Positions 19,138 to 36,390 of a stretch of DNA of 64,000 nucleotides are shown one piece after another (positions within the stretch are counted from its first letter, which is position 1; the number at the start of each line of letters is the position of its first letter). The notes under the pieces are model-generated. The model saw nothing but the letters and a program-made list of their open reading frames with translations. It was not told the DNA's origin and did no database searches. A program made the translations under genes and the position numbers. The stretch spans positions 12,053-76,052 of the forward strand of contig JADFZS010000004.1 of assembly GCA_015232405.1 (NCBI GenBank), read 5' to 3'. This stretch comes from Magnetococcales bacterium (GTDB lineage: Bacteria > Pseudomonadota > Magnetococcia > Magnetococcales > JADFYX01).

Positions 19138-21441
19138 ATGATTAGTAAACATCTTGAGACATCACTTAACAAAGCTATAAGAAACGCCCAGTTGCGCGGA
19201 CAGCAGTATGCCACAGTTGAACATCTGCTTTTGGCTTTGACTGAAAATCCAGAGGTTACAGGTCTTCTACTCACCTGTGGCTGTGATCTCACCAAATTAT
19301 CCTCGGATCTCGACAACCATCTAACCGCCCATGTTCCTGTGGCACGTGAAGATGACCCTATCCAGGAGATAACCCCAACTGTTGGTTTCCAAAGGGTAAT
19401 TCAAAGAGCTGTCTTTCAAGTTCAATCCTCGGGGCGCACCATGGTAACAGGGGCATATGTTCTGGTTGCCATGTTTAGTGAAAAAGAGTCCCATGCGGTC
19501 CATTTTCTAGAAAATCAGGATATCAGCCGCTTGGATATTCAATCTGCCATCTCCCATGATTCAGAGGGGGCTGACTCGGGTGCTAACAGCCCCTCCGAGG
19601 AGCCTCTATCTCCTGGGGGAACAATTCCCAAGCCTGATGATAAGCAAAATCCACTGGAGCTTTACACGGTCAACTTAAATAGGGAAGTCAAAGAGGGTCG
19701 AATTGATCCATTGATAGGCCGCGAGGATGAGATTGTCAGAACATTTCAGATTCTCTGTCGCAGGAGAAAAAACAACCCTCTGTATGTAGGTGAGGCCGGG
19801 GTGGGCAAAACCCATCTGGCTGAAGGAATTGCCCTTAAGATTGTCGAGGGTAAAGTACCTAAAGTATTGGAGAATTGTGTGATTTTCGCCCTGGATCTCG
19901 GCTCTCTTTTAGCAGGAACAAAATTTAGAGGTGATTTTGAAGCGAGGCTCAAAGGGGTATTGAAGGCTTTAAAGGATCATCCTGATGCCATTTTGTTTAT
20001 AGATGAGATACACACCATTATTGGTGCTGGTTCCACAAGTGGCAGCACCATGGATGCTTCCAACCTACTAAAACCTCTGTTGGCAAATGGCGAACTACGC
20101 TGTATTGGCTCCACAACCTATGAGGAGTTTCGCAGTGTTTTTGAGAAAGATAGTGGTCTGGCACGAAGGTTTCAAAAAATTGATGTTCCAGAACCCTCTA
20201 TGGAAGAGACCATTGCTATTTTAAAGGGTTTGAAAGGTCGTTATGAGGAGCACCACGGTATCACCTACTCCCAGGACTCCATCCAGATAGCAGCAGAGCT
20301 ATCTGGTCGCCATATTCATGATCGCAAGCATCCTGATTCGGCTATTGATGTGCTGGATGAAGCAGGTGCTGCCTGTCAACTTGTGGTTGAGGAGGAGAGG
20401 CAAAAAGAGATTGGGGTAGAGAATATCGAGACTATTGTTTCACGAATGGCAAGAATACCTGCCCGTTCTGTCTCCCATGACGATAGGTTGATTTTAAAGG
20501 ATTTAGAGGCCAATCTAAAGCTATCTTTATTTGGTCAGGACCCTGCTTTAACTCAGGTTTGTACAGCGATTAAGTTGGCCCGTGCAGGTTTGGGCAACCC
20601 TGAAAAACCCATGGGCTGTTTTTTGATGACTGGTCCAACGGGTGTGGGCAAAACTGAGCTTGCAAGGCAGTTGGCAATTGAGTTGGGTGTGGAGTTGGTA
20701 CGGTTTGATATGAGTGAGTATATGGAGAGACACACAGTCTCTCGTCTTATAGGTGCTCCTCCGGGTTATGTTGGCTTTGATCAGGCAGGACTTTTGACAG
20801 AAGCGGTAACCAAAAATCCCCATGCCATATTGCTGCTTGATGAGATAGAAAAGGCTCATCCTGATATTTATAATATACTTTTACAGGTTATGGATCATGG
20901 TAAGCTGACAGATAATAATGGTCGTCAGGCTGATTTTCGCAATGTAATTCTTATTATGACCACAAACGCTGGCGCTCAGGATGTGGACCGCTCTTCGGTT
21001 GGTTTTACCACTCAAAACCATGTTGGTGATGAGATGAAGGAGATTAAGCGGCTATTTACTCCAGAGTTTCGCAACCGCTTGGATACCATCATTGCCTTTA
21101 AATCACTTGAGCCAGAGACTATTGTGAGGGTAGTTGATAAGTTTCTCTTGGTGTTGGAGGCTGATCTTGAGAAAAAAAATGTCACCCTTAATGTTAGTGC
21201 CAGTGCAAGAAACTGGTTGGCGGAGAACGGTTATGATCGTAGCAATGGTGCTCGGCCCATGGAGAGGTTGATTAAAAAAGAGATTCGCCAACCACTATCA
21301 GAGGAGCTTCTTTTTGGTAATTTGACCGAAGGTGGTTCAGTATCGTTACGGGCGGAAAAAGATAAACTTCACTTAAACTGCAAAAAGCCCACTGCACGCA
21401 AAAAGAGAAAGTCTGCCAAGAAGGTTCCTGTAACAGCTTAA
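19138..21441 (+). CDS. clpA: ATP-dependent Clp protease ATP-binding subunit ClpA
   Basis: Two AAA+ modules ([16 protein letters not shown]), [11 protein letters not shown]. Confidence 0.97.
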
Positions 21442-21606
21442 ACCTAGAAACGGCGGTTGGCAGTGCGTACATGGCGTAACATATTGGTTTAGCTGGTGTA
21501 ACAGAGCAAATCGAAGTCACCTTGTTGGTGATGAGACTTTGCTCTGTTATGCCAGATGAATCAATAGGTTGCGTCAGGTGCGTGCTGACAACTGCTGTTT
21601 CTAGGT
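21442..21606. mobile_element. 165-bp palindromic MITE, copy 1 (ACCTAGAAAC...GTTTCTAGGT) with TAA target duplication
   Basis: Flanked by TAA at 21439-41 (the clpA stop) and 21607-09. A near-identical inverted copy lies at 48406-48573. Confidence 0.88.
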
Positions 21607-21645
21607 TAAATATAATGTAGCTACATCAAAGAATGGACAGTTAAT

Positions 21646-22624: not shown

Positions 22625-22692
22625 CCTAGTTAACTTTTTGTTTATATGGTAAATTCAAACCAAATCTGGACAAAAAAATATTTTTATTATTA

Positions 22693-22822
22693 GGGGTGCA
22701 GGGGGATTATCTCCCTGCTGGGTTTGGGCGAAGCCCAAGGTTTTGCCTTTGTTTTTAAGTCTTTACATTCAAAAGTGTGGGGGTTTGGGGCCTGCAAGGC
22801 CTCCCAAGGTTTTGCTTTTGAC
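22693..22822 (+). repeat. REP-like half element related to the arms of the cruciform elements
   Basis: GGGGTGCAGGGGGATTATCTCCCTGC-TGGGTTTGGGCGAAGCCCAAGGTTTTG, then a second degenerate GGGTTTGGG...CCCAAGGTTTTG. Confidence 0.75.
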
Positions 22823-22845: not shown

Positions 22846-23322
22846 CTATACATCGATATTTTTCAGCTCTTCATCAATTCGTGCCTGCATTTTTTTATCG
22901 GTATCGGTAGTTGGTGTTGCAGTTTTAATACTGTTTTTCTTCCATTTTTTAAATGCTGTTATCAGGGCAAGCGCACCTATGATCAGTCCGAAAGCGGGAC
23001 CAAACCAGAGCAGCATGTTCATACCGGACTTTGTAGGTTTGAGGTATATGTAGTCACCGTAGCGTTGGAAGAAATAGTCTCTTATGGAGGCTTCGCTTTC
23101 TCCGGCGTTTACTTTATCTCTGATGACCTCAAGCATATCTTTGGCGAGGTCTGAGTTAGACTCATAGATAGACTGGTTTTGGCAAACGGCACAGCGGAGA
23201 TCTTTAGCGATGGTTCTTACGAGAGCTTCGCTGGGATCTTCATTTTTGGTTGTTGCAGATAGTGGCGATGCTGTTAAAAACAGTATTGCAAACAGTATTA
23301 TAAGATTTAGATATCGTCTCAT
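22846..23322 (-). CDS. ccmH: Cytochrome c biogenesis protein CcmH
   Basis: LRCAVCQNQSI, RYGDYI. Start taken at MRRYL. Confidence 0.93.
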   Translation of the reverse strand: MRRYLNLIILFAILFLTASPLSATTKNEDPSEALVRTIAKDLRCAVCQNQSIYESNSDLAKDMLEVIRDKVNAGESEASIRDYFFQRYGDYIYLKPTKSGMNMLLWFGPAFGLIIGALALITAFKKWKKNSIKTATPTTDTDKKMQARIDEELKNIDV

Positions 23323-23323
23323 A

Positions 23324-23875
23324 TCATGTTTTCCCACCTGAGTTTGTTCCTTGGATTTGTGGCAGAGCGATTTTTTCAAACCAGCCGAAGTATAGGGGTC
23401 CGGTATGTTTTAATCTTATCATACCTGTGGGGTCCACAAGGTAAGATTCTGGTGCACCGTATACCCCCCAATCTATTGCTATTTTTTGTTTAGGGTCAAA
23501 GGCGTGTTTATAGCCGGGGTCGCCGTGACGTTGCAGAAATCTATTGGCTCCTTCTCTGGTATCGCGAAAGTCCACACCAATTATCAGAAAATCATCTCGT
23601 TTATCGGCGATTCTAGCTAGTTCCAGCAGATATGGATGTTCGGCAACACAGCTGATGCACCAGGAGCCCCAGAAGTTTACTAGCACCCATTTTCCTTTAT
23701 AGTCAGAAAGGGAGATATTACCGTTACCTTTAAGGGTAGGTGCGGTAAAATCTGATGCTGGTTTATTTACCAGTGGCGAGGGTATATCTCGGGGATCATT
23801 GCCCAAACCTCCGGCAAACAGGGCCATGATGACAACGAGAGATAGTAGCAGGATAATTTTCCAGGAATTTTTCAT
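23324..23875 (-). CDS. ccmG: Thiol:disulfide interchange protein CcmG/DsbE
   Basis: NFWGSWCISC, WGVYGAPESYL. Confidence 0.95.
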   Translation of the reverse strand: MKNSWKIILLLSLVVIMALFAGGLGNDPRDIPSPLVNKPASDFTAPTLKGNGNISLSDYKGKWVLVNFWGSWCISCVAEHPYLLELARIADKRDDFLIIGVDFRDTREGANRFLQRHGDPGYKHAFDPKQKIAIDWGVYGAPESYLVDPTGMIRLKHTGPLYFGWFEKIALPQIQGTNSGGKT

Positions 23876-23924
23876 GATATCCTAATTAAAATAACAAAAT
23901 AAAATAACAAAAAATAAAACTAAT

Positions 23925-24336
23925 GGGGGTCCAGGGGAATCATTTCCCTGGTGGGTTTGGGCGAAGCCCAAGGTTCTGTCTTTGCTTTAAGGCCGAATTT
24001 ACAAAAGGCGTTTTTTTGCCTTTGCTTTTAAAAAAACGTCTCGGCCCGTATCTTAATTTATAAGTATATAATCCCAGTCTTTTTTGGGATTATATACTTA
24101 TAAATGCTATTTACCAATCACGGGTTGGATTAAATCCGACCGTTGGTAGGTAAAGGATGCTAGCAAAGGTAGAAAACCCCCAAAAGCTGGGTTTTCTACC
24201 TTTGCTAGCGAATATACTAGCCGGGGGCTTTTTTTAAAAGGCACAAAAAAAGCCCTTTATAACTCCGGCTTTACAGCAACAGCAAAACCTTGGGCCTTGC
24301 CCAAACCCACCAGGGAAATGATTCCCCTGGACCCCC
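23925..24336. repeat. 412-bp cruciform palindromic element (REPIN/MITE-like), copy 1
   Basis: ~125-bp imperfect terminal inverted repeats (first 38 bp perfect), three internal hairpins, ACTAAT on both sides. Second copy at 34122-34528. Confidence 0.9.
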
Positions 24337-24360
24337 ACTAATACAGCCTTTTTTATATGC

Positions 24361-26325
24361 CTACTCCAGCTTTTTTTCCCTACTAATCCGCCCCTGCATA
24401 AGCGCAAATATAACACCCAACGCCATAATACCAGAACCAGTCCAAACCCAGACAATCAACGGATTTCTATAAACCCGAATAGACCAAACATCCTTCTTGA
24501 CCTCATCACCCAACACCACATAGATATCCTCAAACCACGTGGTGTGAATAGCTGCCTCAGTAGTGGGTTGCGAAGTCTCATTATAAACTCGCTTCTGCGG
24601 CCTTAACTCAACAGAAAAACCACTATCATGCTCAGCCGTTATAACCGCCTCAACCGCTCGCCAGTTGTATTTACTCGCTGTACCTACCCTGTCCAAAGTG
24701 AAATTCCAAGAACCAACCTTAACCTTGTCCCCAGATGTCATGAATAGGTTCTTCTCCTCCTGATATAAACCAGAACCGATAAAACCAGCAGCCATAACCA
24801 AAATACCAAAATGTACTACAAAACCTCCATAACGACGCTTGTTTCTACTAATAAGCTGCCACAAAGTGGTAACAGCCGAACCCGACTCCCGGTTTTTCAT
24901 ACGGGCAACAACCTTCCTGCGAGTGTCCAATATATGGGTCGCCAAAACAAAAGCCATCACCACAGATGTGCTAATTCCATAAAAATTGCCCATGCCCATA
25001 GCCCAAGCGGCAATGCCCGTAACAACAGCAAATATGGTCGGTATTAATAAATCCCGCTTTAACTGCCTGAAACTTGCCTTGCGCCACGAAATAACCGGAC
25101 CTATACCCATCATCAATATGATACCCAACATAATCGGGATGAAGACCGCATTATAATATGGAGCACCCACCGAGACCTTGGAATCAGACCAAGTCTCGAC
25201 AGCTAATGGATACAACGTGCCCAATAACACCGTTAAGGTGGCAACCAACAAAAATAGATTATTAAATAAAAATGCCGACTCCTTTGATAGTGGGTTTTCA
25301 AGCTTGATGTCGGTCTCTAGATGCTCCGATTTCATGGTCAACAGACCAAAGGAGAAAAATAGCAATACCGTCATAAATGCTAAAATATACACCCCTCGAC
25401 CAGGATCAGAAGCAAAAGAGTGGACCGAAGATAAAACCCCGGATCTCACCAAGAATGTACCCAAAATCGCCAAGGCAAACGTCATGGTAACCAAAAAGAC
25501 GTTCCAGGTTTTAAACATCTGTCGCTGCTCTTGCACCATTACCGAATGTAAAAATGCCGTCGCCGTCAACCACGGCATAAATGAGGCGTTCTCCACCGGG
25601 TCCCACGCCCAATATCCACCCCAACCAAGCTCGTAATAGGCCCAATAAGCACCAAAAACAATTCCCGTCGTCAACATGGCCCATGAAAAAAGAGTCCATC
25701 TTCTCGTTGCCACAAGCCACTCTTCATCAGCCTGACCAGTTATCAATGCTGCCATGGCAAATGCATAAGGTATGGCAAAACCAACATAACCCATGTAGAG
25801 AAATGGTGGATGAAATACCATGCCTGGATCTTGTAAAAGAGGATTTAAATCTTTTCCATCAAATGGTGGTGGTATCAATCTCTCAAATGGAGTCGATAAA
25901 AACAGCACCAACAACAAAAAGCCCACTAAAAGAGCACCCAAAATAGCCAATACATAAGGCATGGATACCGGATGGGTCTTCCAATGCCGCCATGCTGCTA
26001 CACCGATATAAACAGAAAGCAACCACGCCCAGAGTAACAAAGAGCCTTCATGACCACCCCACATAGCTGTCGCCAGATAAAATATTGGTAGATCCAACGA
26101 GGCGTGTTTGGCTACATAAAGAACTGAAAAATCATGATTTAAAAAAGAGTTGACCAAACCAACAGTGGAAACAGTCAAAAGCAGTGCGACAACAACGGCA
26201 GAATGCCTGCCAACACGTATCCATGCGTTATTACCACTTGTTACCCCATACAGAGAGGAGAATATCTGTAAAAATGTTAAGATCAGTGCCAAAAGGGCAG
26301 AAAAATGGGCAATTTCAATCCACAC
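24361..26325 (-). CDS. ccmF: Heme lyase CcmF
   Basis: HPPFLYMGYVG, WGGYWAWDPVENAS, SVHSFA. Confidence 0.97.
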   Translation of the reverse strand: MWIEIAHFSALLALILTFLQIFSSLYGVTSGNNAWIRVGRHSAVVVALLLTVSTVGLVNSFLNHDFSVLYVAKHASLDLPIFYLATAMWGGHEGSLLLWAWLLSVYIGVAAWRHWKTHPVSMPYVLAILGALLVGFLLLVLFLSTPFERLIPPPFDGKDLNPLLQDPGMVFHPPFLYMGYVGFAIPYAFAMAALITGQADEEWLVATRRWTLFSWAMLTTGIVFGAYWAYYELGWGGYWAWDPVENASFMPWLTATAFLHSVMVQEQRQMFKTWNVFLVTMTFALAILGTFLVRSGVLSSVHSFASDPGRGVYILAFMTVLLFFSFGLLTMKSEHLETDIKLENPLSKESAFLFNNLFLLVATLTVLLGTLYPLAVETWSDSKVSVGAPYYNAVFIPIMLGIILMMGIGPVISWRKASFRQLKRDLLIPTIFAVVTGIAAWAMGMGNFYGISTSVVMAFVLATHILDTRRKVVARMKNRESGSAVTTLWQLISRNKRRYGGFVVHFGILVMAAGFIGSGLYQEEKNLFMTSGDKVKVGSWNFTLDRVGTASKYNWRAVEAVITAEHDSGFSVELRPQKRVYNETSQPTTEAAIHTTWFEDIYVVLGDEVKKDVWSIRVYRNPLIVWVWTGSGIMALGVIFALMQGRISREKKLE

Positions 26326-26440
26326 AAAAACACCTCGGATTATCTACTTGTATTTACAAAAAAATTATTAAAAAACACTACCAGCAAGTACCGGGGTTGA
26401 ATCGAAGAAAAAACCCCAAAAAAATATCACCTTCAAAAAT

Positions 26441-26896
26441 CTATTGCATAGATTTCAAAATCGACTTCTTGGCCTTGGCAATACCCTCTTCACTCATCTC
26501 AACAGGCATATAATCCTCGGAGTGTTTAGCCAATATAGACTTAGCCATAAAATCTTGACCACCCTGCCACATACCCTCAACAATTACACCTTGGCCCTCC
26601 CGGAAAAGGTCCGGCAGCATACCGTCATAGCGCACAGGAAACATATTCTCCCCATCTGTAACCAAAAAGCGGATTTTCAGGGTTCCCTCCTCCTTTACCA
26701 AAGAACCCTCCTGCACCATGCCACCAATTCTCACGGTTTTACCATCCAGGTTATCACTTTTTTGGATAATTTCCGTCGGTGTATAAAAATAGACCAACGA
26801 ACCGGTAAATGAAGAGAATACCAACGATAACAATGCTCCACCCACAACCAGAACCGTGAGCATGAGAAATAGCCGTTTTTGCTTTTTTTTCATCAT
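26441..26896 (-). CDS. ccmE: Heme chaperone CcmE
   Basis: LPDLFREGQGVIVEG, LAKHSEDY. Confidence 0.95.
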   Translation of the reverse strand: MMKKKQKRLFLMLTVLVVGGALLSLVFSSFTGSLVYFYTPTEIIQKSDNLDGKTVRIGGMVQEGSLVKEEGTLKIRFLVTDGENMFPVRYDGMLPDLFREGQGVIVEGMWQGGQDFMAKSILAKHSEDYMPVEMSEEGIAKAKKSILKSMQ

Positions 26897-27024
26897 GAGG
26901 TTTTCTGCTCTTTCAACTGTTGTTGCGCCCGCTTAAGACCCCTTTGCCACTTAAGGGTGAGAACACCGTAGACCACTGTGGCAACACCATAAACAGCAAT
27001 AACGTAGGGTGTGTAATCAATCAT
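26893..27024 (-). CDS. ccmD: Heme exporter protein CcmD (43 aa, absent from the ORF track)
   Basis: MIDYTPYVIAVYGVATVVYGVLTLKWQRGLKRAQQQLKEQKTS*: TM plus basic tail, between ccmC and ccmE with overlapping start/stop codons. Confidence 0.85.
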   Translation of the reverse strand: MIDYTPYVIAVYGVATVVYGVLTLKWQRGLKRAQQQLKEQKTS

Positions 27025-27712
27025 CTTCTTCCATCCTTTCAATATCCAACGCTTCTAGCTGCCTTAATGCAGCCACCTCACGGGCCTTTACCACCACCAA
27101 ATAGGCGCCCATAAGGATAAAAGCAATAGCCATTACCAGCAGAGGTGGCAACAGATCACCAGTTATCGTGGGGTTGCCAGAAGCACCACCAAACGATGGA
27201 GGCTGATGCAAAGTACGCCACCAAACTACAGAATAATGTATAATAGGCAGATCCACCGCCCCGATTATAGCTAAAATTGCCGTAGCACGGGCCGCTTTTG
27301 TCGGCTCTTCCAATGAACTACGCAGTGCCATCAAACCCATAAATATGATCAAAAGCACCAACATGGAGGTAAGACGAGCATCCCATGCCCACCATGTACC
27401 CCACATGGGTTTTCCCCATATAGAGCCAGAAGCAAGGGTTACAGCTGTAAATGCGGCACCCACGGGAGCCGCAGCTTCCGCAATGATATCTGCTGTCTCG
27501 CTCTTTTTAACAAGATATGTGATGCTGGCAATGGTTAACAGTATATAGCTAAAAAGAGACATTTTGGCTGATGTAACATGGGCATATAATATCCGCACCG
27601 AGTTGCCCTGCTGAAAATCAATGGGGGCATTGAACACCATCCATAGACCAACACCCAACCACAACAGAGCCATGAATCCTAACGGTCGTTGTATGCGAGC
27701 TAATAAATTCAT
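27017..27712 (-). CDS. ccmC: Heme ABC exporter permease CcmC
   Basis: WGKPMWGTWWAWDARLTS. Confidence 0.97.
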   Translation of the reverse strand: MNLLARIQRPLGFMALLWLGVGLWMVFNAPIDFQQGNSVRILYAHVTSAKMSLFSYILLTIASITYLVKKSETADIIAEAAAPVGAAFTAVTLASGSIWGKPMWGTWWAWDARLTSMLVLLIIFMGLMALRSSLEEPTKAARATAILAIIGAVDLPIIHYSVVWWRTLHQPPSFGGASGNPTITGDLLPPLLVMAIAFILMGAYLVVVKAREVAALRQLEALDIERMEEDD

Positions 27713-27721
27713 TGCCTAAAT

Positions 27722-28387
27722 CTACTCCTCAACCAGCCAAGAAAAACCCCAAGGGGCCAAGGCGAGATAAACCATATCAAAAATCAGCAGCAGTTTAATC
27801 CAGGGCCAGGGTTGACCATCTGCGACCATAACACCGGCTGTGGCCTGTACTCCCGCTATTAATAGGGGAGCCACCAGAGGCAACAGAAGCAGTGCCAATA
27901 GTGTCTCTCTCGATCTTGCTGCCTGGGTCATGGCAGCCAGCAGCACTCCCAACCCGGTTAAACCCAATATTCCCAAGACCAACACCCCAAAAATATGATG
28001 TATAACATGCCATGCGTCAACATTGAAAAGGATCATGGTCAAAGGTAAAATCATAGCTTGCACAAGCAGGGTCAAAAACAGATTTCCCAACCATTTACCG
28101 AGAAAAATAATACCCCGGGGAACCGATGCCAACAACAATCCCTCAAAGGCTCCATTCTCCTCCTCGGCCTGAAACACCCGTCCCAACCCCATCAAACTGG
28201 TAAACAGAACCGTCGCCCAGACAAGACCCGGTAACAGTTTGACCGCAGCCTGCCTGTCAGGTTCAAAAGCAGCTTGAAAAACCACTAAAACTGCAATGGC
28301 AAAAAAAAGCATGGACGAAAGAGAAGAACGGCGACGAAGATCACCCACCATATCTTTCCAGGCTATTCGATAGGCTGCTTTTAACAA
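27722..28387 (-). CDS. ccmB: Heme exporter CcmB
   Basis: Multi-TM protein, EENGAFEGLLL, LLLPLVAPLLI, operon position. Confidence 0.93.
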   Translation of the reverse strand: MLKAAYRIAWKDMVGDLRRRSSLSSMLFFAIAVLVVFQAAFEPDRQAAVKLLPGLVWATVLFTSLMGLGRVFQAEEENGAFEGLLLASVPRGIIFLGKWLGNLFLTLLVQAMILPLTMILFNVDAWHVIHHIFGVLVLGILGLTGLGVLLAAMTQAARSRETLLALLLLPLVAPLLIAGVQATAGVMVADGQPWPWIKLLLIFDMVYLALAPWGFSWLVEE

Positions 28388-29040
28388 GTGACCACCTCCC
28401 CTTCCGGCAACAGGCGACCCTTCTTTAAAAATTGTGGTTTATGATCAAGAGCAGCAACCCGTTGGGGATCATGGCTTGCCATGATAATCATACCACCACC
28501 TTTGAGAAAATCTGTCAAAATGGAATTCAACCAATTAACACCCTGAGCATCTAAAGCGGAATATGGCTCATCCAACAGTAAAAGAGATGGTTTGGCTATT
28601 AGAACACGGGCCAGTGTCAGCCGTTTTTTCATGCCGGCAGAAAACCAACGGCTCGGTCTGTCGGCAAAACGACCAAGACCCACCGTTTCGATTGTTTTAC
28701 GAATAGCATCATCAGAAGGGGTCAGCTGTCTGAGATCGGCAAAAAAAAGTAGATTTTCAACCGGGGTAAGATGTCCATAAAGGTGGCTGTTATGGCTGAC
28801 AAATACCAATTTATCGCGGATTTCATCACCATGGTTTTTTGAGTCCAAACCATCAAGGGTGTACTGCCCTTTTTGTAGAGAAAAACGTGTGGACAAAAGG
28901 GTAAGAAGGGTGGATTTACCAGAGCCGTTATCACCAAACAGAACAACACAATCGCCAGCGTGCATGGTCAATTCGATGCCTTGCAATACTTTATGTCTGC
29001 CAAATCGGTGATGCAAACCTGTTACTGCTAACTTAACCAT
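28381..29040 (-). CDS. ccmA: Heme ABC exporter ATPase CcmA
   Basis: GDNGSGKS, FSAGMKKR, LLLDEP. Confidence 0.93.
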   Translation of the reverse strand: MVKLAVTGLHHRFGRHKVLQGIELTMHAGDCVVLFGDNGSGKSTLLTLLSTRFSLQKGQYTLDGLDSKNHGDEIRDKLVFVSHNSHLYGHLTPVENLLFFADLRQLTPSDDAIRKTIETVGLGRFADRPSRWFSAGMKKRLTLARVLIAKPSLLLLDEPYSALDAQGVNWLNSILTDFLKGGGMIIMASHDPQRVAALDHKPQFLKKGRLLPEGEVVTC

Positions 29041-29134
29041 ATATGCACTTAGCTCGGACAGTTAAAGATATCCGGGTTGGGAATTAAATAAAGTGTAGAG
29101 ATGCTTTGATCCCAAAAAATGGTAGTTGAAACTG

Positions 29135-30220
29135 TTATCGCTTAGAAGGTTTAATCAGACGGCCTTCCATACCAATTTTTTCTTTAATCAGTCGCCCTGC
29201 CTTTTCGGCCTTGGTTCTTGTGGAAAAAGGCCCCAAACGAACCCGGTAGTACGTCTTGGACCGGATATTGGCAGTCTCCTGATAAACTGGCATTCTCTTA
29301 CCGTTGAACATAACAGAGCGTAGCTTGCTTTGCAACGCCCTGGACCGTTCAGCATTGGATAAGGAGGCTATCTGCATGGAGTAACCATTTTTTGGGGTTA
29401 CACTACCACTGGGCTCAACAGCTCTTGCTGGCTCTTTTTTCGCAACTGGTTTTACACTGTTTAGCTGTTTTTTGGCTACATACTGTTTCGGCTGCTGATT
29501 TTGTTGCGCCTTTTTTTGTTTAGCTAAAGCGTCAGCTATAGCTTTGCTGAAATCTATATTTGTCGGTGGCAACTCTTTTGCCCTATTGGTCACAGGCTGC
29601 TGTTTTGCTGCTTTACTTCTCTCCAATGCCCTTTTACTTGCTAGCTCAGCCTCTCTTATCCTTCTGGCAGCTTCCTGTTTTGCCTCCTGGGCTTTTTTCA
29701 ATTTTTCGGCATTGGCCTGTTTTAATTTATCCGCTTCGGCTTTTTTCTTTTTGGCCTCAGCCAGTTTTCTTGCCTCTTCCTTTTTAAAGGCCACCTCTTT
29801 ACGAACCGCCTCTAGTTCAGCTGGAGAACGGTTCCACCCACCTTGCAACTCCTCATCAGGAGTTTGACCACCTAGAACATGTCCCTCCTCAGGGGGAGCC
29901 TCTGCATTTTGTTGCTCTTTTGTAGGCAGACTCTCTCCAGGTTTAAGAACAGTACGATTGTTTAATTTTTCATAATTAAGTTCATCGTTGACATGGTTAC
30001 TAAACACCGCAGCTGTTCCAGACAACCCCTTATTCTGATATCTATCTGAACGCCCCATTCTGTCGGTCAATTTGACCATGGGCCGTTTTGCCACATCCTC
30101 TTCGACCAGATCTGATGGAGAGCTGACCATATTGAAGATGACAACAACGAGTATCAACAGAAGGATGACACCGCCAGTTATCAAAAAAAGTTGCTGTTCT
30201 CTGTTGGGTGAAGCTTTCAT
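29135..30220 (-). CDS. SPOR-domain protein (FtsN/DedD-like)
   Basis: N-terminal TM, charged linker, C-terminal YSMQIASL...YYRVRLGPF. Confidence 0.85.
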   Translation of the reverse strand: MKASPNREQQLFLITGGVILLLILVVVIFNMVSSPSDLVEEDVAKRPMVKLTDRMGRSDRYQNKGLSGTAAVFSNHVNDELNYEKLNNRTVLKPGESLPTKEQQNAEAPPEEGHVLGGQTPDEELQGGWNRSPAELEAVRKEVAFKKEEARKLAEAKKKKAEADKLKQANAEKLKKAQEAKQEAARRIREAELASKRALERSKAAKQQPVTNRAKELPPTNIDFSKAIADALAKQKKAQQNQQPKQYVAKKQLNSVKPVAKKEPARAVEPSGSVTPKNGYSMQIASLSNAERSRALQSKLRSVMFNGKRMPVYQETANIRSKTYYRVRLGPFSTRTKAEKAGRLIKEKIGMEGRLIKPSKR

Positions 30221-30285
30221 TTTAGGATATGAGACCCCTATTTTTACCTTGACGAAACAATAATTTTTCTTGCATTATTCCATCT

Positions 30286-30831
30286 ATGAAACATTGTGCA
30301 CTACTAACTATTTTTGGTAACGATCGCCCAGGCATTGTTGCCCAGGTGACCAAAGTCCTCTTTGAGACAGGCTGCAATATTGCAGACTCCAGTATGACCC
30401 GTCTGGGTGGGGAGTTTACAATAATGCTGATAGTCTGCTACCCAGAAGGTTTCACTTCTGAGCAATTATCCAATAAACTTATACCTGTCGTCAACGAAAT
30501 GGCACTTGAACACCATGTCAAAGATATTGAAACTTCCGCTGCTCTAAATCCTAATCCAACACAGCCCGAAAGGGAATGTATAATTAGCGTTCTAGGTGCG
30601 GATCAGCCCGGTATCGTCTATCGGGTGGCCGAAGCAATTCAAGATACAGGCGGAAATGTAAGCGATTTATACACGCAAGTCATTGGTTCACCTGATCGGC
30701 CAGTCTATACTATGATCATTGAAACAGAGTATTCCAGCAATATTGAGGCCATACAGAAGCGTTTAGATAAATTGGCTGTTGAGTTGCAGGTTGAAATCTC
30801 ATTGCGTATTGCGCAATCGGACCCACTATAG
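30286..30831 (+). CDS. GcvR-like double ACT domain protein
   Basis: GNDRPGIVA and GADQPGIVY ACT motifs. Confidence 0.88.
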   Translation: MKHCALLTIFGNDRPGIVAQVTKVLFETGCNIADSSMTRLGGEFTIMLIVCYPEGFTSEQLSNKLIPVVNEMALEHHVKDIETSAALNPNPTQPERECIISVLGADQPGIVYRVAEAIQDTGGNVSDLYTQVIGSPDRPVYTMIIETEYSSNIEAIQKRLDKLAVELQVEISLRIAQSDPL

Positions 30832-30860
30832 CAGACTTTTTATATTTTATGTGATTCCCC

Positions 30861-31397
30861 ATGGCTGTGCTGGACATTCTTATCTACCCTGATGAAAGGT
30901 TGCGAGGTATTTCTGAGGAGGTTGTCGATTTTGCCGACCCCCAACTGCAACAATTCATTGATGATCTAATCGATACCATGCATGCTGGTCCCGCCTGTGT
31001 AGGAGTAGCTGCTCCCCAGACTGGAAAACAGATCCGCTTGGTTTTAATGGACTGTTCCCTGGCTCGCAAGCCACCAGAAAATAACCATGGTCAACTTGTG
31101 GTGATAAATCCGGTAATACTTAATTGGGACGGTATGGATGTCGCTCGTGAGGGATGTCTCTCCCTGCCGGATTATACTGGTAATGTTATGCGAGCGGTTG
31201 ATATCACGGTACAATTTCAAGATCGCCATGGTAAAGAACATGCCCTTACCATGACCGAATTTGAAGCAAGGGTATTACAACATGAGATGGACCACCTTGA
31301 CGGCAAGCTTTTTACCGACCGTATAGTGAGCCGTAAAGCCGACCTGTTTCGCCGTAAAGTTCGTGGAGTAAAAAAGAAAAAAACTGCTCAACAATAG
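30861..31397 (+). CDS. def: Peptide deformylase
   Basis: GVAAPQ, EGCLS, QHEMDH. Confidence 0.96.
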   Translation: MAVLDILIYPDERLRGISEEVVDFADPQLQQFIDDLIDTMHAGPACVGVAAPQTGKQIRLVLMDCSLARKPPENNHGQLVVINPVILNWDGMDVAREGCLSLPDYTGNVMRAVDITVQFQDRHGKEHALTMTEFEARVLQHEMDHLDGKLFTDRIVSRKADLFRRKVRGVKKKKTAQQ

Positions 31398-31636
31398 CTG
31401 CCTTCCTTTTTTTTAGTTAAGGACAAGTAACCATCTCTTTAATTAACGATGTGTGGACTATTTGGTTTTTTTACAAATAGAGGCGGAAATTTGCTTGACG
31501 GCAAGCTAATATTGATTCAGAATTAACCGTTTTTCATCTAGTTGCTGTAAAAAATCATTTTTTGCTAGCTGGATACTTGACTAATAACAGACTCTTTATG
31601 GTAGTTACCATTTAAGAATTTTGTGAGGAAATAGCC

Positions 31637-31771
31637 GTGAAAAGAACTTTTCAACCCAGTACAATACGTCGTAGCCGTACCCACGGTTTTCGCTCTCGTA
31701 TGGCCACAAGAGCAGGACGCAAATTGCTCTCTCGCCGTCGCGCCCGTGGTCGTAAGCGTCTCTGTCCGTAA
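31637..31771 (+). CDS. rpmH: 50S ribosomal protein L34 (absent from the ORF track)
   Basis: GTG start: [44 protein letters not shown]. Confidence 0.98.
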
Positions 31772-31804
31772 AGCTGTAGCTTTAAAAAATGATAGCATAG
31801 GCTT

Positions 31805-32194
31805 TTGAAGGTTGAAAAACAGGGGCTTTTGGGGGTAGGCAATAAATTTCCCAAATCGGCCCGTATATTGACCTCTGCTGGTTATCGTCATGTAACTGGT
31901 AGAAACACTAAAAAAAGCGTATCACCCCATTTTTTGCTATTTGTTTTGCTTAATAAAGGTGGTAAAGAGCCAAGATTGGGCATGACTGTAAGCAAAAAAG
32001 TTGGTAATGCTGTTGTGCGTAATCGGATTAAAAGGGTTGTCAGGGAATTTTTCCGGCAGAACAGATCCCTGCTTACTTCCTCATTTGATTGTGTAGTTAT
32101 CGCACGACCTCGTGCTGGCAAAACCAGTGGGGCTGAGTTAACAAAAAGTTTAGCTAAACTTTTTAGGCCATATCAAAAATCAATTGGTACTTAA
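31805..32194 (+). CDS. rnpA: Ribonuclease P protein component
   Basis: RLGMTVSKKVGNAVVRNRIKR. Confidence 0.97.
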   Translation: MKVEKQGLLGVGNKFPKSARILTSAGYRHVTGRNTKKSVSPHFLLFVLLNKGGKEPRLGMTVSKKVGNAVVRNRIKRVVREFFRQNRSLLTSSFDCVVIARPRAGKTSGAELTKSLAKLFRPYQKSIGT

Positions 32195-32200
32195 GAGCTT

Positions 32201-32425
32201 GTGAAACCTGTAATTTTAGCTTTAATTAAGTGTTATCGCTATTGTATCTCGCCGATGCTACCGCGCAGTTGTAGATTTTATCCCAGCTGTTCGGAGTATG
32301 CTGCGGAGGCAGTTACGGATTATGGCGCGTTAAAAGGCAGTTGGTTGGCTATGCGTCGTTTGGCAAAATGTCACCCTTTCCATCCCGGTGGAGTAGATCC
32401 CGTTCCCGAAAAAGTCAAGAACTAG
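32201..32425 (+). CDS. yidD: Membrane protein insertion efficiency factor YidD
   Basis: [24 protein letters not shown]. Confidence 0.97.
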
Positions 32426-32433
32426 GAATTCCC

Positions 32434-34101
32434 ATGGACCAGCGTACAATTCTGGCCATCAGCTTGTCATTTATTTTGCTGGTGTCCTATCAAACCTATA
32501 TGGACACTTATTATCCACCTGCGCCTATGGAGCAGCAGATGGAGCAACCTTTGGAGGATGAGAGCAGAAATCTTTCTGAATCTGGGCCACGTCCTAGTAC
32601 TGTTGACGGGGTACGTGTTGGCAAGGGGCCTGATGGGCCGGTAGCCGAAGAGGCAGCACCTGAAATTACTACCAAGGTAGCTCCCAGCGGCCCAGGCGAA
32701 ATTTTTAAATTTGAGGATGGTGTCGTAAGAGGTGAGATTGCCCAAACTGGTGGTCGCATTGCAAAGCTATCATTTTTAAAACATTTAGATGAGCTACCCC
32801 CGGAAGGGCAGCCTATTCAATATATGGATCAAGATTCCCGTGAGTTTTTCTTTGCGGAGTCTGGATTTTTAGGTTCAGCTGGTTTTGTTGCCCCGAATCG
32901 TGAGACCATGTGGCAACTAGTTAGTGGTGAGGGCCTTGTTGGTAGTGGCGACTTACATTTAAGCTGGAACAATGGCAAAGGGGTAACATTTGAAAAAATC
33001 TATTCTTTTACTGAGGATTCCTATCTATTTACAGTAACCGACCGGATTATCAATAAAAGTCAAAAGGCCTTTGAGTTTTATCATTATTCTCAGTTTGTGC
33101 GTGTTGAGCCGGGTGTTGGTGATGGGGAGCAGATGTTAGCCATTGCTGATTTTGAAGGACCAATGGGCTATTTGGATGAGGCGCGAGTACAGCATGAGTA
33201 TTCTGATTTAAAAGAGGCGGATCAGCGTCAGAGGGCAAAATCCGGCTGGATTGGTATTAGTGATAAATTTTTTCTAGCAGCTTTAATTCCGCCCAAGGGT
33301 GAAAAAGAGAACAATTTCTATTTTGATTATGATGTCCCGGCCCATCGAGCTGGTACTGTTTCCAATAAAGAGGTTATAAGTGCTGGTGGTGAGGTATCGG
33401 TTGCCACGCAGATGTATATTGGCCCCAAGGAGGTTAAGACACTTGAGAGCCATAACCTAAATTTACAGCGAGCTATTGATTATGGTTGGTTTCATTTCCT
33501 AGCGGAGCCAATTGTTCAGGTGTTGTTGTATTTAAACGGTATTTTCCACAATTTTGGTGTTGCCATTATTCTTTTGACCTTTGGCATCAAGATAGTTCTA
33601 TTTCCATTGGCCAACAAGAGCTATGTCTCTATGAACGCCATGAAGAAGCTACAGCCCAAGATTGAGGAGTTAAAAACCAAGCATGGGGACAATAAAAAGG
33701 CTTTAAACGAAGATATGATGAAGCTTTACCAGACCAACAAGGTTAATCCGTTGGGTGGTTGTCTACCGATGATAGTGCAGATTCCGGTATTTTTTGCTCT
33801 TTATAAGGTTCTATTTTTATCGGTTGAGATGCGTCATGCGCCGTTTATGTTATGGATAGATGATTTATCGGTGATGGACCCATATTTTGTTTTACCGATA
33901 TTGATGGGTGCTTCGATGTTTTTCCAGTCTAAGTTAAACCCGACTCCGGCTGATCCGATTCAGGCGAAGATCATGATGTTTTTACCGTTGATTTTTACCT
34001 TTATGTTCATGACGTTCCCTGCTGGTTTGGTTCTGTATTGGTTGCTTAACAATGTCTTATCCATAGCACAGCAGATGTATATTCTTAAAAAAGAAGGCTA
34101 A
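32434..34101 (+). CDS. yidC: Membrane protein insertase YidC
   Basis: YIGPK, NPLGGCLPMIVQIPVF, FPAGLVLYW. ATG at 32434 is the likely start. Confidence 0.97.
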   Translation: MDQRTILAISLSFILLVSYQTYMDTYYPPAPMEQQMEQPLEDESRNLSESGPRPSTVDGVRVGKGPDGPVAEEAAPEITTKVAPSGPGEIFKFEDGVVRGEIAQTGGRIAKLSFLKHLDELPPEGQPIQYMDQDSREFFFAESGFLGSAGFVAPNRETMWQLVSGEGLVGSGDLHLSWNNGKGVTFEKIYSFTEDSYLFTVTDRIINKSQKAFEFYHYSQFVRVEPGVGDGEQMLAIADFEGPMGYLDEARVQHEYSDLKEADQRQRAKSGWIGISDKFFLAALIPPKGEKENNFYFDYDVPAHRAGTVSNKEVISAGGEVSVATQMYIGPKEVKTLESHNLNLQRAIDYGWFHFLAEPIVQVLLYLNGIFHNFGVAIILLTFGIKIVLFPLANKSYVSMNAMKKLQPKIEELKTKHGDNKKALNEDMMKLYQTNKVNPLGGCLPMIVQIPVFFALYKVLFLSVEMRHAPFMLWIDDLSVMDPYFVLPILMGASMFFQSKLNPTPADPIQAKIMMFLPLIFTFMFMTFPAGLVLYWLLNNVLSIAQQMYILKKEG

Positions 34102-34121
34102 AAAAATAGCTTTTAACTAGT

Positions 34122-34528
34122 GGGGGTCCAGGGGAATCATTTCCCTGGTGGGTTTGGGCGAAGCCCAAGGTTTTGTAGTTGCTGTAAAGCCGAATATTAA
34201 AAGTCGTTTTTTTGCCTTTGCTTTTCAAAAAACGTCTCGGCTAGTCTATTAACCCCCAAAGCAATAAAACCCCGTCTTTTTGGGGTTTTATTGCTTTGGG
34301 GGTGTCCTTTACTCTCCATTGGTGGGAGTTAATTTAATCCCTTGCTAGGTATAGGACACATATCAAGAGACAAAAACCAAAAGGACGGTTTTTGTCTCTT
34401 AATATGCTAATAGATTAGCCGGGAGCTTTTTTTGAAAAGCACAAAAAAAGCTCTTTTAAATTCCGGCTTTACAGCAAAACCTTGGGCTTTGCCCAAACCC
34501 ACCAGGGAAATGATTTCCCTGGACCCTC
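34122..34528. repeat. 407-bp cruciform palindromic element (REPIN/MITE-like), copy 2
   Basis: Same arms as 23925-24336, different internal hairpin stems, flanked by ACTAGT and ACTAAT. Confidence 0.9.
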
Positions 34529-34567
34529 ACTAATGGGAGCATACCCACTAGTATCGGTATATTTATT

Positions 34568-35968
34568 ATGCGTCATATTAACTCCACAGATCCCATAGCA
34601 GCCCTCGCTACCCCCCCCGGTCGCTCCGGTGTAGCCATAATCCGCATAAGTGGTAAAAATGTCTGGAAAAAATTAACCCCTCTGCTTAAATATCCAAACT
34701 CAAAACCCATAAGCCCAACACCACCAACCCCCAGAGTTTTACAACGTATTGATCTTATAGACGCAAACAACCAAACCCTAGATCAAGCACTGGTTGTCTA
34801 TTTCAAAGGACCCAACTCCTTTACAGGTGAAGACCAAATAGAGATCCAAGGCCACGGCTCCCCCGTTGTTATCGCCCGAACCATGGAACGACTTTCCCAA
34901 CTAGGTATCAGACCCGCCGACCCCGGTGAGTTCTCCCGTAGAGCCTTTCTAAACGGTAAAACCGATCTGGCCCAAGCAGAAGCACTGATGAACCTAATCA
35001 ATGCCTCTTCCCTAAGAGCAGCAAGAGAGGCCACTAAACAGATGGAGGGAACCCTCTCCCAAAGATTGCAAAACAACCAAGCCCTGCTACTAGAAGCTCT
35101 GGCACACCTGGAAGCAACATTAGACTTTGCCGACGAAGATATTTCACCAGATGATCAACTAGCCATAGCAGGCCGACTAACAAAAGTAGCCGAAGATATC
35201 GGTCAACTACTACAAGGATCAACACTTGGAAAACAGCTGGCCCACGGCTTTGAACTGGCAATAATTGGTAGACCAAATGTCGGAAAATCCACCCTGTTCA
35301 ACCGTCTATCAGGCCATAACAGAGCCATAGTTACCCCACTACCAGGCACAACCAGAGATATCCTGGAAAGCCCCATCGAAATACACGGTATACCCGTACA
35401 ACTTACCGATACCGCTGGTCTAAGAGAAACAGACGAAATAATTGAAGAAGAGGGTATAAAAAGAGCAAAAGAGAGACTACAAAAAGCCGATGCCGTACTG
35501 CTACTGCTTGATATATCAAAAGAAATTACAAATGAAGATCAAGAGATCATCAAGCTTGCTCCTCTCGATAGAACAATAATAGTTTGGAATAAACAGGATT
35601 TAACTGAATCCAACAAAATACCAGATACAAATAAACTAGGTGTAGATCAAGCCGTTGCCTCAGTGGTAATATCATGCAAAAAAGACAGAGGTATCAACCA
35701 ACTAACCGAAAAAATAGCCAGCTTTTTCGGCTCCCAGCCCATAGATGGCGAAGGGAGCGTGGTTATGGTAGCCAGACAAAAAGAGAACCTACAAAAAACC
35801 ATTTCACATCTGGCAAGCGCAGAAGCTCTCCTTCTCCACTGCGAAAATGAAGAGCTAGTAGCAATCGCAATAAGAGAAGCCCTAAACTCCATAGGTGAAC
35901 TAATAGGCAAAACTACCCATGACGACCTCCTAGACCTGATTTTCAGCTCCTTTTGTATAGGTAAGTAG
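34568..35968 (+). CDS. mnmE: tRNA modification GTPase MnmE
   Basis: GRPNVGKS, GTTRD, DTAG, C-terminal FCIGK. Confidence 0.98.
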   Translation: MRHINSTDPIAALATPPGRSGVAIIRISGKNVWKKLTPLLKYPNSKPISPTPPTPRVLQRIDLIDANNQTLDQALVVYFKGPNSFTGEDQIEIQGHGSPVVIARTMERLSQLGIRPADPGEFSRRAFLNGKTDLAQAEALMNLINASSLRAAREATKQMEGTLSQRLQNNQALLLEALAHLEATLDFADEDISPDDQLAIAGRLTKVAEDIGQLLQGSTLGKQLAHGFELAIIGRPNVGKSTLFNRLSGHNRAIVTPLPGTTRDILESPIEIHGIPVQLTDTAGLRETDEIIEEEGIKRAKERLQKADAVLLLLDISKEITNEDQEIIKLAPLDRTIIVWNKQDLTESNKIPDTNKLGVDQAVASVVISCKKDRGINQLTEKIASFFGSQPIDGEGSVVMVARQKENLQKTISHLASAEALLLHCENEELVAIAIREALNSIGELIGKTTHDDLLDLIFSSFCIGK

Positions 35969-36108
35969 GGATATATTTTTATAAATTTATACCATGTAAG
36001 CTTGTATACGTTTCTGGTTAACTCTCTTTACAAATAATTTGACTTTTTAAGCACAAAGTATACATTGTAGTTATATGTTTACGGTTTGTGCTCAAAGGAG
36101 TCTTGTTG

Positions 36109-36390
36109 ATGTCTGCAAAACCATTCTCAGTCCGTCTTCCTGATGAAGTCCGCGCAGACCTTGCGTATCTTAGTGAGGTTACCCACCGCTCACAATCCTC
36201 TATTGCCATACAATTGTTGGCAGAAGAGGCAAAAAAGAAAAGTGACAAGTTACGCGCCATCGAGGCAGCTAAGGAGGATATCAAATCTGGGGTGCTTCAT
36301 TCTGGAGAACAGATTATAGAGTGGATGGATACCTGGGGCAGCAAAAATGAAAAACCATCTCCTAAGCCTGATATAATTGATATCAGCTAA
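36109..36390 (+). CDS. Ribbon-helix-helix antitoxin (CopG-like)
   Basis: FSVRLPDEV...RSQSSIA, directly upstream of the toxin gene. Confidence 0.8.
   Translation: MSAKPFSVRLPDEVRADLAYLSEVTHRSQSSIAIQLLAEEAKKKSDKLRAIEAAKEDIKSGVLHSGEQIIEWMDTWGSKNEKPSPKPDIIDIS

Follow-up and report, generated by a model that had tools for sequence, protein, structure and literature searches.

Mirror-image strand skew in core genes flanking a composite palindromic repeat of a Magnetococcales bacterium

How can two adjacent housekeeping genes, read in the same direction from one operon, come to carry opposite strand compositions at their synonymous sites? A stretch of 64,000 nucleotides from a Magnetococcales bacterium (GenBank assembly GCA_015232405.1, contig JADFZS010000004.1, positions 12,053 to 76,052), here called the window and numbered from its first letter, raises this question twice. 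Specifically, composite element E1 (23918..24342, 425 nt; 35976-36388 of the contig) lies between ccmF and ccmG in a minus-strand operon, and composite element E2 (34115..34534, 420 nt) lies between yidC and mnmE in a plus-strand operon. An earlier note on this DNA, based on hand counts, claimed that the DNA 5' of each element is rich in G and T and the DNA 3' of it rich in A and C, and it ascribed the flip to recurrent breakage or nicking at the palindrome or to local fork arrest. The observation as a whole holds, and it generalizes beyond the two window elements.

Opposite compositions on the two sides of composite elements

Skew is measured here as the G+T fraction at fourfold-degenerate third positions. 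On the coding strand, G or T occupies 24/30 such sites at the 3' end of yidC (33841-34101) and 38/45 at the 3' end of ccmF (24361-24669). Across the elements, the counts are 16/56 at the start of mnmE (34568-34879), 10/39 at its end (35702-35968), and 19/50 at the start of ccmG (23582-23875). Two control stretches, the first 52 sites of pilM and the last 35 of clpA, give 29/52 and 20/35. All of the hand counts are thereby reproduced, two of them to within one site (16/57 at the mnmE start and 21/35 in clpA in the earlier note). By Fisher's test, the yidC end differs from the mnmE start with p=9e-6 and the ccmF end from the ccmG start with p=4e-6. Whole genes give 142/245 (.58) for yidC, 203/317 (.64) for ccmF, 65/229 (.28) for mnmE, and 34/89 (.38) for ccmG. 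Across the 3631 open reading frames (ORFs) of the source genome with at least 120 amino acids and at least 60 fourfold sites, coding-strand G+T averages.50 (standard deviation.065, 0.5th percentile.30, 99th percentile.654), which puts mnmE under the 0.5th percentile and ccmF near the 98th. Read on the plus strand within 600 nt, G+T is.61 to the left and.20 to the right of E1, and.70 to the left and.29 to the right of E2. The G+C fraction at fourfold sites stays nearly constant across the elements.

The source genome (G000) is a draft of 5.86 Mb in 335 contigs, with 42% G+C and 90% completeness; its contigs carry C-numbers, and the window lies on C280. Each of its 3589 junctions between neighboring ORFs was given a score d, the drop in plus-strand fourfold G+T from the 600 nt left of the junction to the 600 nt right of it. 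Copies of the element family that span at least 140 nt are termed long, and five of these are full length (~420-475 nt). All seven of the largest d values (.40-.54) belong to junctions that hold a long copy. With 13 long-copy junctions among the 3589, we calculate the chance of such a result to be about 1e-18 (hypergeometric). The mean d of the 13 is.318, and the five full-length copies rank 1, 2, 3, 5, and 6. Thus, the tie between flip and element that was proposed from E1 and E2 extends to other long copies. Random intergenic junctions are not as strong: the 3519 element-free junctions have a mean d of -.008 (standard deviation.092) and a 99.5th percentile of.224, and 57 junctions with short copies average -.018. 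Eleven of the top 12 junctions hold a family copy or a diverged subfamily, the latter at rank 9 and further copies at ranks 10-12; rank 8 (C95) is the only one without a recognizable element. The diverged subfamily, at C110:5591-6392, has the same module architecture in another sequence and was missed by both blastn and the module profile. It adjoins a copy of a second palindrome family, between a divergent gene pair, and marks the ninth strongest flip.

The repeat is modular. E1 consists of two ~84-nt terminal modules in inverted orientation and a center with two more hairpins. E1 and E2 share ~77% identity and are two copies of one repeat; their inverted termini span 96-97 nt at 85-95% complementarity, and their ends read TAATGG/TAGTGG ... 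CACTAAT. In DNA fold prediction, single-stranded E2 forms one long branched hairpin of -162 kcal/mol with 119 end-to-end pairs. The five full-length copies, each predicted as one long branched hairpin, range from -131 to -190 kcal/mol with 68-119 end-to-end pairs. With the first 100 nt of E2 as the seed of an nhmmer profile, 117 copies of the 84-nt module are detected in G000, and blastn finds 93 loci of the element family. Ninety-nine of the 117 modules are solo or tandem, and nine inverted pairs lie 269-483 nt apart; composite copies, that is, two ~84-nt hairpin modules in inversion, measure about 300-480 nt overall.

Composite structure is needed for the flip. Six of the eight inverted module pairs that can be tested on both flanks exceed the background 99.5th percentile. 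The 99 solo or tandem modules, oriented by their own strand, give.48 and.52 on their two sides and thus no one-sided effect. The window holds one of them (22691..22773, plus strand; C280:34743-34825). This solo module has no inverted partner and no flip, with plus-strand values of.60 in the left gene and.63 in the right gene.

An unrelated palindrome family of ~175 nt, with window copies at 21438..21610 and 48394-48585, served as a negative control. No flip was found at 42 junctions of this family (arm 70-200 nt, mean d -0.03), and at the junction of the first window copy (33493-34245 of C280) d is -0.01. Its copies are ~175-190 nt long with arms of ~88 nt that are ~72% complementary (blastn), each with 60-70 related junctions, and the predicted fold of one copy is -58 kcal/mol. 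A generic inverted-repeat effect was considered and rejected: 44 short high-identity repeats have a mean d of.00, beside the -.03 of the ~175-nt family.

A meta-profile centered on element copies, as the earlier note suggested, gives a mirror-image cusp. When the two flanks of the five full-length copies are superposed so that the strand read always has its 3' end toward the element, G+T in successive bins is.76 (0-150 nt),.77,.72,.69 (450-600 nt),.67, and.65 (0.9-1.2 kb), then.59,.61,.55 (2-2.5 kb),.59,.57 (3-4 kb),.55,.51 (5-7 kb), and.49 (7-10 kb). In each bin, the left flank matches the right, and the signal is two-sided and symmetric at each of the five copies. The reach of at least 1.4 kb that had been claimed in mnmE thus grows to about 5 kb. 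Near the element, base fractions are.12-.17 for A,.06-.11 for C,.33-.40 for G, and.37-.43 for T, compared with.29,.22,.20, and.29 far off, so that the depletion of C and A and the enrichment of G and T are all of similar size. Fitted with a single exponential, which falls short over the first 300 nt, the one-directional excess is about 2.3-fold at the element and has a length constant of ~1.7 kb. The local skew amounts to +/-.27 around.50; for whole contigs of 30-106 kb, the departure from.50 averages.024 and does not exceed.055.

The skew grows as constraint weakens. Specifically, the same statistic is.76 at fourfold sites,.68 at other third positions,.57 at first positions, and.54 at second positions, which points to mutation pressure filtered by selection, unlike read or assembly errors. 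The earlier note's inference that the codon usage of core genes is reshaped holds, and the effect extends slightly to amino acids. Of all residues in the downstream proteins whose codons are either G/T-rich or A/C-rich, the G/T-rich class accounts for.497, versus.563 in the orthologs of a congener, G004 (5/5 genes). For the upstream proteins, the shares are.606 in G000 and.585 in G004 (4/5 genes).

Within the window, the skew spans several genes. On the 5' side of E2, a putative rnpA at 31805-32194 and yidC (together 31805..34101, plus strand; YidC_periplas and 60KD_IMP in Pfam at 32341-34098) are G/T-rich on the coding strand, and G+T climbs toward the element from.55 at 32000-33499 to.68 at 33500-34249. 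On its 3' side, mnmE (34568..35968, plus strand; Pfam MnmE_helical and TrmE_N) is A/C-rich throughout. Around E1, ccmF and the four upstream ORFs that read toward the element (24361..29040, minus strand; CcmF_C and Cytochrom_C_asm at 24364-26325) have coding-strand values of.58-.65. Downstream of E1, the ccmG-like thioredoxin gene and ccmH (22846..23875, minus strand; Pfam AhpC-TSA/Redoxin and CcmH) are A/C-rich (.38 and.37).

The sign of the skew is set by position relative to the element, not by the direction of transcription. At every long copy, the plus-strand left flank is G/T-rich and the right flank A/C-rich, irrespective of gene orientation. Thus, on the coding strand, 5/5 co-directional operons have a G/T-rich upstream gene and an A/C-rich downstream one; convergent pairs (C30, C110:8048, and C194) are G/T-rich on both coding strands; and the sole divergent junction (C110:5591-6392) is A/C-rich on both. 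The polarity is as the earlier note had it: the strand that runs 5' to 3' toward the element is G/T-rich on both sides, like a replication terminus and opposite to an origin. An actual terminus fails as the source, as the signal is back at.50 by 5-7 kb with no persistent step. At least eleven cusps exist in G000, two of them 10 kb apart within the window.

Age, lineage, and remnants of the elements

Among 56 genomes of the order, long copies occur only in G000 and two sister species of its genus, G001 and G002; five other genomes have 45-60-nt matches only. Two further genus members, G003 and G004, carry only ~60-nt modules. Most long copies occupy the same junctions in G000, G001, and G002, and gene order across the elements is canonical and common to the three assemblies. 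Given that these species differ by about 0.8-1.0 substitutions per fourfold site, shared junctions mean that the insertions are old. Orthologous junctions with long copies in three species thus bear out the claim that the elements are long-lived.

All five full-length copies in G000 separate co-directional housekeeping genes. By Pfam, the pairs are enoyl-ACP reductase and chorismate synthase (fabI-aroC), a glucose-1-phosphate nucleotidyltransferase-type protein and a dTDP-sugar epimerase (rfbA-rfbC), a dethiobiotin-synthetase-type AAA_26 protein and a class-III aminotransferase (bioD-bioA), CcmF and a CcmG-type protein, and YidC and MnmE; the labels fabI, aroC, rfbA, rfbC, bioD, and bioA are our shorthand for these Pfam results. 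Coding-strand G+T in the upstream/downstream gene can be compared across the genus. At fabI-aroC, full copies accompany.72/.29 in G000,.64/.50 in G001, and.62/.40 in G002, and G004 and G003, with no element, have.51/.50 and.63/.59. At rfbA-rfbC, values are.71/.19 in G000 and.80/.19 in G002 (full copies),.78/.16 in G001 (remnant), and.61/.49 in G004. The ccmF-ccmG junction has.64/.38 in G000 (full copy),.58/.30 and.74/.17 in G001 and G002 (remnants), and.59/.53 and.61/.45 in G004 and G003. For bioD-bioA, they are.77/.26 in G000 (full copy),.77/.30 and.81/.14 in G001 and G002 (remnants),.59/.42 in G004, and.43 in G003, where the downstream gene was not found. Finally, yidC-mnmE has.65/.28 in G000 and.22 for mnmE of G001 (full copies),.52/.47 in G004 (a 38-nt remnant), and.50/.60 in G003. 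Within 600 nt, four full-length copies of G001 and G002 give.83/.19,.70/.39,.67/.30, and a weaker.51/.38.

Sixteen mnmE genes from other families range from.34 to.71. A full copy present only in G002 has.67 and.70 on its 3'-ended strands; the G000 orthologs, element-free and 6.4 kb apart, have.32 and.42. Thus, the bias is a derived trait of the clade with composite elements. The earlier note expected orthologs without the element to lack the codon bias. In G003 and G004 it is indeed absent or weak, but the remnant junctions of G001 and G002 keep it.

Every "empty" junction in G001 and G002 retains a piece of the element, either a 40-nt mini-palindrome of the two outermost ends or a degenerate form. 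Collapse of the full copies apparently came about through deletions running from the first hairpin of one module to that of the other, both being nearly palindromic. The remnants lie at L061:2098-2143, L062:1372-1501, L065:2088-2192, L066:2085-2111, L058:1326-1501, and L003:1416-1453; some are pristine, and others are heavily mutated.

Processes that could write the skew

Any process behind the pattern must be tied to the composite element, affect both flanks with the two strands in mirror image, extend over 1-5 kb, and make the 3'-ended strand resemble a lagging-strand template in the extreme. Processes that begin at the element and move away from it, such as an origin, rolling-circle or strand-displacement synthesis, or outward promoters, predict the opposite sign. 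Three transactions do fit: 5'-to-3' resection from a break or nicks, repair forks that converge, and gaps beyond a hairpin that blocks the polymerase.

We propose that the composite palindrome is the cause of repeated exposure, on both flanks, of the 3'-ended strands through a break or nick, 5'-to-3' resection, and repair synthesis; judging from sequence, we put the chances of this at about even. A composite copy would fold into one long hairpin or cruciform and so become a long-lived site of repeated DNA opening. Both strands with 3' ends toward the element would be left single-stranded, or be re-copied late, over one to a few kilobases. By the simplest route, the folded palindrome would be cleaved or nicked, an SbcCD-type nuclease being the candidate. 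Resection of both ends 5' to 3' would follow, and then repair templated by a sister chromosome, in which synthesis from the two sides would meet at the element. Through base damage in single-stranded DNA and errors in gap filling, the exposed strands would lose C and A and gain T and G. Over evolution, synonymous sites and, slightly, amino acids would settle into mirror-image equilibria, with G and T in excess 5' of the element and A and C in excess 3' of it on either strand.

Breakage or nicking followed by resection is favored on several grounds. The polarity of the skew is that expected for 3' tails after resection, which supports this reading. Both flanks are equally affected at every full-length copy, unlike the outcome of a block on the lagging strand only. 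Hairpins of this size are cut by SbcCD in E. coli, and SbcD (TIGR00619) scores above cut-off in 5/5 genus genomes, the nuclease being judged on SbcD alone. Finally, a study of human meiotic double-strand break hotspots describes a parallel (Hinch et al., Science 2023, PMC7615360): within about 2 kb of a fixed break site, C>N and A>N changes on one strand are mirrored by their complements across the break, and the asymmetry is put down to exposure of resected single strands and the filling of gaps.

Other observations weigh against a break or nick with resection, beginning with the substitution rate. Composition-corrected synonymous divergence of G000 from G001/G002 is.95 and.68 within 300 nt and.88 and.92 at 300-600 nt, no higher than the.82-1.11 at 4-12 kb. 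In the sense of a raised rate, therefore, the "mutational foci" of the earlier note are not borne out. By our arithmetic, a 2-3-fold one-directional excess lifts the total rate only 1.3-1.5-fold at equilibrium, which lies inside the noise; the data fit a persistent bias in the direction of mutation, any accompanying rise in rate being modest at most. Thus, the interpretation offered by that note stands in polarity, locality, and longevity, and it went too far where it implied more mutation.

The chemistry is a second difficulty. Spontaneous deamination is far slower for adenine than for cytosine, yet A is about as depleted as C, and deamination by itself therefore does not account for the skew. 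Net flows relative to G004, a saturated comparison, are 91 versus 39 for C>T, 101 versus 51 for A>G, 50 versus 7 for C>G, and 86 versus 53 for A>T. With fourfold identity of.34 to G004 and.31 to G003, against about.27 expected, polarizing the substitutions failed. Equal loss of A and C, together with net flow out of each of them into G as well as T, suggests error-prone filling in addition to deamination.

The elements themselves pose further difficulties. Two of the eight testable composites scarcely flip (C111,.13; C97,.09). The inertness of the unrelated palindrome, with its ~88-nt arms, at 42 junctions calls for a threshold of length or perfection or for a family-specific factor; either hairpin potential by itself is insufficient, or a length threshold exists. 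Remnants of 40-110 nt are skewed like full copies (.77/.30,.81/.14,.74/.17, and.78/.16), and the full copies at fabI-aroC in G001 and G002 are weaker (.64/.50 and.62/.40), so that skew strength does not track the present state of the element. Three accounts of the skew at remnant junctions can be given: it is a slowly fading fossil, it is sustained by remnants that retain activity, or populations are polymorphic for the element. Decay of the skew needs about one substitution per site, and by our estimate the most degenerate remnants have accumulated about a quarter of that since collapse. Lastly, RecB (TIGR00609) has no match above cut-off, the best candidates being ORFs of ~1140 amino acids with weak matches.

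A missing uracil glycosylase was entertained as a cause and dropped, as a UDG-superfamily protein (PF03167) is present in 4/5 genus genomes. Family-1 uracil-DNA glycosylase (TIGR00628) was found in 0/5 of these genomes, whose completeness is 65-99%.

If breakage and resection are indeed at work, the composites may be natural self-renewing fragile sites, broken and repaired at the same positions since before the three species split, with the skew as an equilibrium "resection footprint," an idea that we hold tentatively and at somewhat less than even confidence. Synonymous codons would then record how far and how often break flanks become single-stranded, with half the effect near 1 kb and a reach of about 5 kb. 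Sites of recurrent breakage could then be located from base composition alone, in cultured and uncultured organisms alike, and it would be shown that long palindromes last for millions of generations despite being cut.

Breakage may not be required. A polymerase could stall at the folded palindrome, leaving the template beyond the hairpin as a post-replicative gap that is often filled in an error-prone manner. The observed polarity on both strands would follow from this geometry, the 1-2 kb scale resembles Okazaki-fragment or repriming distances, no nuclease is required, and the absence of a large rate rise is consistent with stalling. However, hairpins should form mainly on the lagging-strand template and skew one flank, whereas 5/5 full-length copies are skewed equally on both sides, and the other palindrome family is inert. 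We regard stalling as unlikely.

The inertness of that family would fit an enzyme specific to this one. A transposase or nuclease that recognizes the inverted module pair would cut or excise the element, the donor would be repaired from the sister with resection of the flanks, and the fold would be irrelevant. The restriction of the effect to inverted pairs of one family, the lack of effect of an unrelated and equally foldable family, and the structure of a many-copy element with 96-nt terminal inverted repeats all speak for such an enzyme. Yet spans of up to 5 kb between inverted modules hold ordinary-looking ORFs or none and no transposase gene (the ORFs being judged without a family scan), and the Y1 transposase matches (C157, C313:61142, C266:8349, and C290) do not adjoin modules. 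The same junctions are occupied in three species, which implies that movement is rare. A family-specific enzyme thus strikes us as quite improbable.

Transcription offers another way to expose DNA. With a GC hairpin followed by T runs, the modules resemble terminators, at which R-loops or paused polymerases could expose the non-template strand, and the high G+T of the coding strand in upstream genes is what transcription-coupled deamination would give. Nevertheless, the downstream genes in 5/5 operons are equally skewed the opposite way, which would require antisense transcription to be as mutagenic as sense, and the divergent pair is A/C-rich on both coding strands. We consider this origin very improbable.

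Hardly credible, in our view, is selection or mosaic origin, by which the skew would reflect expression, membrane location, foreign ancestry, or pairing of the flanks in mRNA with each other or with the element. Codon usage varies for many reasons, and yidC and ccmF do encode membrane proteins. The signal, however, follows distance to the element within and across genes, with the same sign at unrelated gene pairs; it is absent in congener orthologs, and it leaves fourfold G+C nearly unchanged. At 5/5 copies, the flanks have no mirror complementarity beyond shifted controls (.23-.27 versus.25-.27). An artefact at the repeat, through chimeric joins or strand-specific errors beside hairpins, is a negligible prospect even in a draft of 335 contigs where repeats disturb assembly, as errors would affect all codon positions alike, whereas fourfold sites far exceed first and second positions, frames are intact, and the canonical gene order across elements is common to three assemblies.

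The element family and its known counterparts

The module runs from a G-rich end through a first hairpin of variable sequence and a conserved second hairpin to a T-rich tail, its 3' portion being a GC hairpin followed by T runs. Modules inhabit intergenic and intercistronic spacers, where they occur solo, in tandem, or as inverted pairs with a linker. The central hairpins of E1 (24055-24105 and 24160-24210) and their counterparts in E2 (34252-34303 and 34365-34400) differ in sequence and keep position and pairing. Pairing is perfect or near-perfect, and the E2 stem measures 22 nt. It is as if structure rather than sequence were retained. The outer module ends (23920-23965, 34118-34160, and the mirror ends) carry four or five G runs on the strand entering the element, and a putative G-quadruplex there could compete with the hairpin.

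At the gathering score, Rfam returned no family for the window region 34000-34650, the best relevant match being Clostridiales-2 at 19.4 versus 58.6 bits. The module core, a variable hairpin plus a fixed 27-nt hairpin-plus-T-run, is also found between genes in records of Clostridia, Lachnospiraceae, Anaerotignaceae, Bacillus, Enterococcus, and Neomarinimicrobiota; by our arithmetic, ~0.004 matches would be expected by chance in that collection. The first hairpin of these other-phylum cores is changed in sequence with pairing retained. Rfam gave no family for the module at ten such loci, and no common gene adjoins the module in the other phyla. Two Hylemonella matches to the core resemble coding sequence.

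The skew matters beyond this genus. Strand skew in bacteria is usually read as a signature of replication, and weakly of transcription, at the replichore scale. Here, within essential operons, a 0.4-kb repeat gives rise to a local skew, fivefold that of any whole contig, which has outlasted speciation. A family of mobile elements thus alters the synonymous and, slightly, the amino-acid composition of core genes without interrupting them. The skew could serve as a computational marker for recurrent single-strand exposure or breakage in uncultured organisms, and it allows an estimate of the length of the exposed tract. It also opens a way to ask, in a natural setting, whether long palindromes undergo the cutting and repair seen with E. 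coli constructs. A caution follows for studies of codon usage, horizontal transfer, and origin or terminus prediction, in which genes such as mnmE (.28) could be misread as foreign or as a skew switch.

Several known systems resemble parts of this picture. Like REP/BIME sequences and miniature inverted-repeat transposable elements (MITEs) such as Correia and ERIC, the family consists of short repeated hairpin modules in spacers, solo, in tandem, or as inverted pairs. It has the terminal inverted repeats and many dispersed copies of a MITE, and the short intergenic palindromic module, solo and in inverted pairs, of REP/BIME; composite copies are far longer than BIMEs. In this 90%-complete draft, with ORFs assessed without a Pfam scan, no inverted pair up to 5 kb apart encloses a transposase-like unit that could be an autonomous MITE partner. 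None of the six PF01797 matches in G000 (C157, two on C313, two on C266, and C290), sought as a sign of RAYT association, is flanked by modules, and on C313 and C266 the nearest modules are more than 30 kb away. We know of no flanking compositional effect of REP/BIME or MITE families.

The five full-length copies are also long hairpin-forming inverted repeats of the kind that SbcCD takes as substrate. In work from the Leach laboratory, an engineered 246-bp palindrome in E. coli reportedly folds during replication and is cut by SbcCD, after which both ends are resected and repaired from the sister by converging synthesis. The geometry matches what is needed here, whereas the E. coli case is engineered and runs on a laboratory time scale. 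To our knowledge, no compositional consequence of such cleavage has been described. In vertebrate mitochondria, fourfold sites of the heavy strand show C>T and A>G gradients proportional to the time spent single-stranded. There, too, synonymous composition acts as a single-strand clock, but the cause is the way in which a small circle is replicated, each genome has one gradient, and no repeat element is involved.

A further likeness, in composition, is the replication strand asymmetry of bacterial chromosomes, in which G and T are likewise enriched together on the leading strand, most strongly at synonymous sites, and which is ascribed to single-stranded time and asymmetric copying. A terminus, however, is a persistent step between replichores, whereas the cusps described here are local, fade over ~5 kb, recur at many sites, and center on a 0.4-kb repeat. 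The human meiotic breaks (PMC7615360) concern the spectrum of new mutations at short-lived SPO11 hotspots; here, the signal is an equilibrium composition at conserved sites in a bacterium. In the literature that our search covered, which excludes subscription-only papers, no description of an element-centered compositional skew in bacteria was found. The ingredients are known, and what appears to be new is that a repeat element imprints on core genes a local skew that is stable and resembles that of a terminus.

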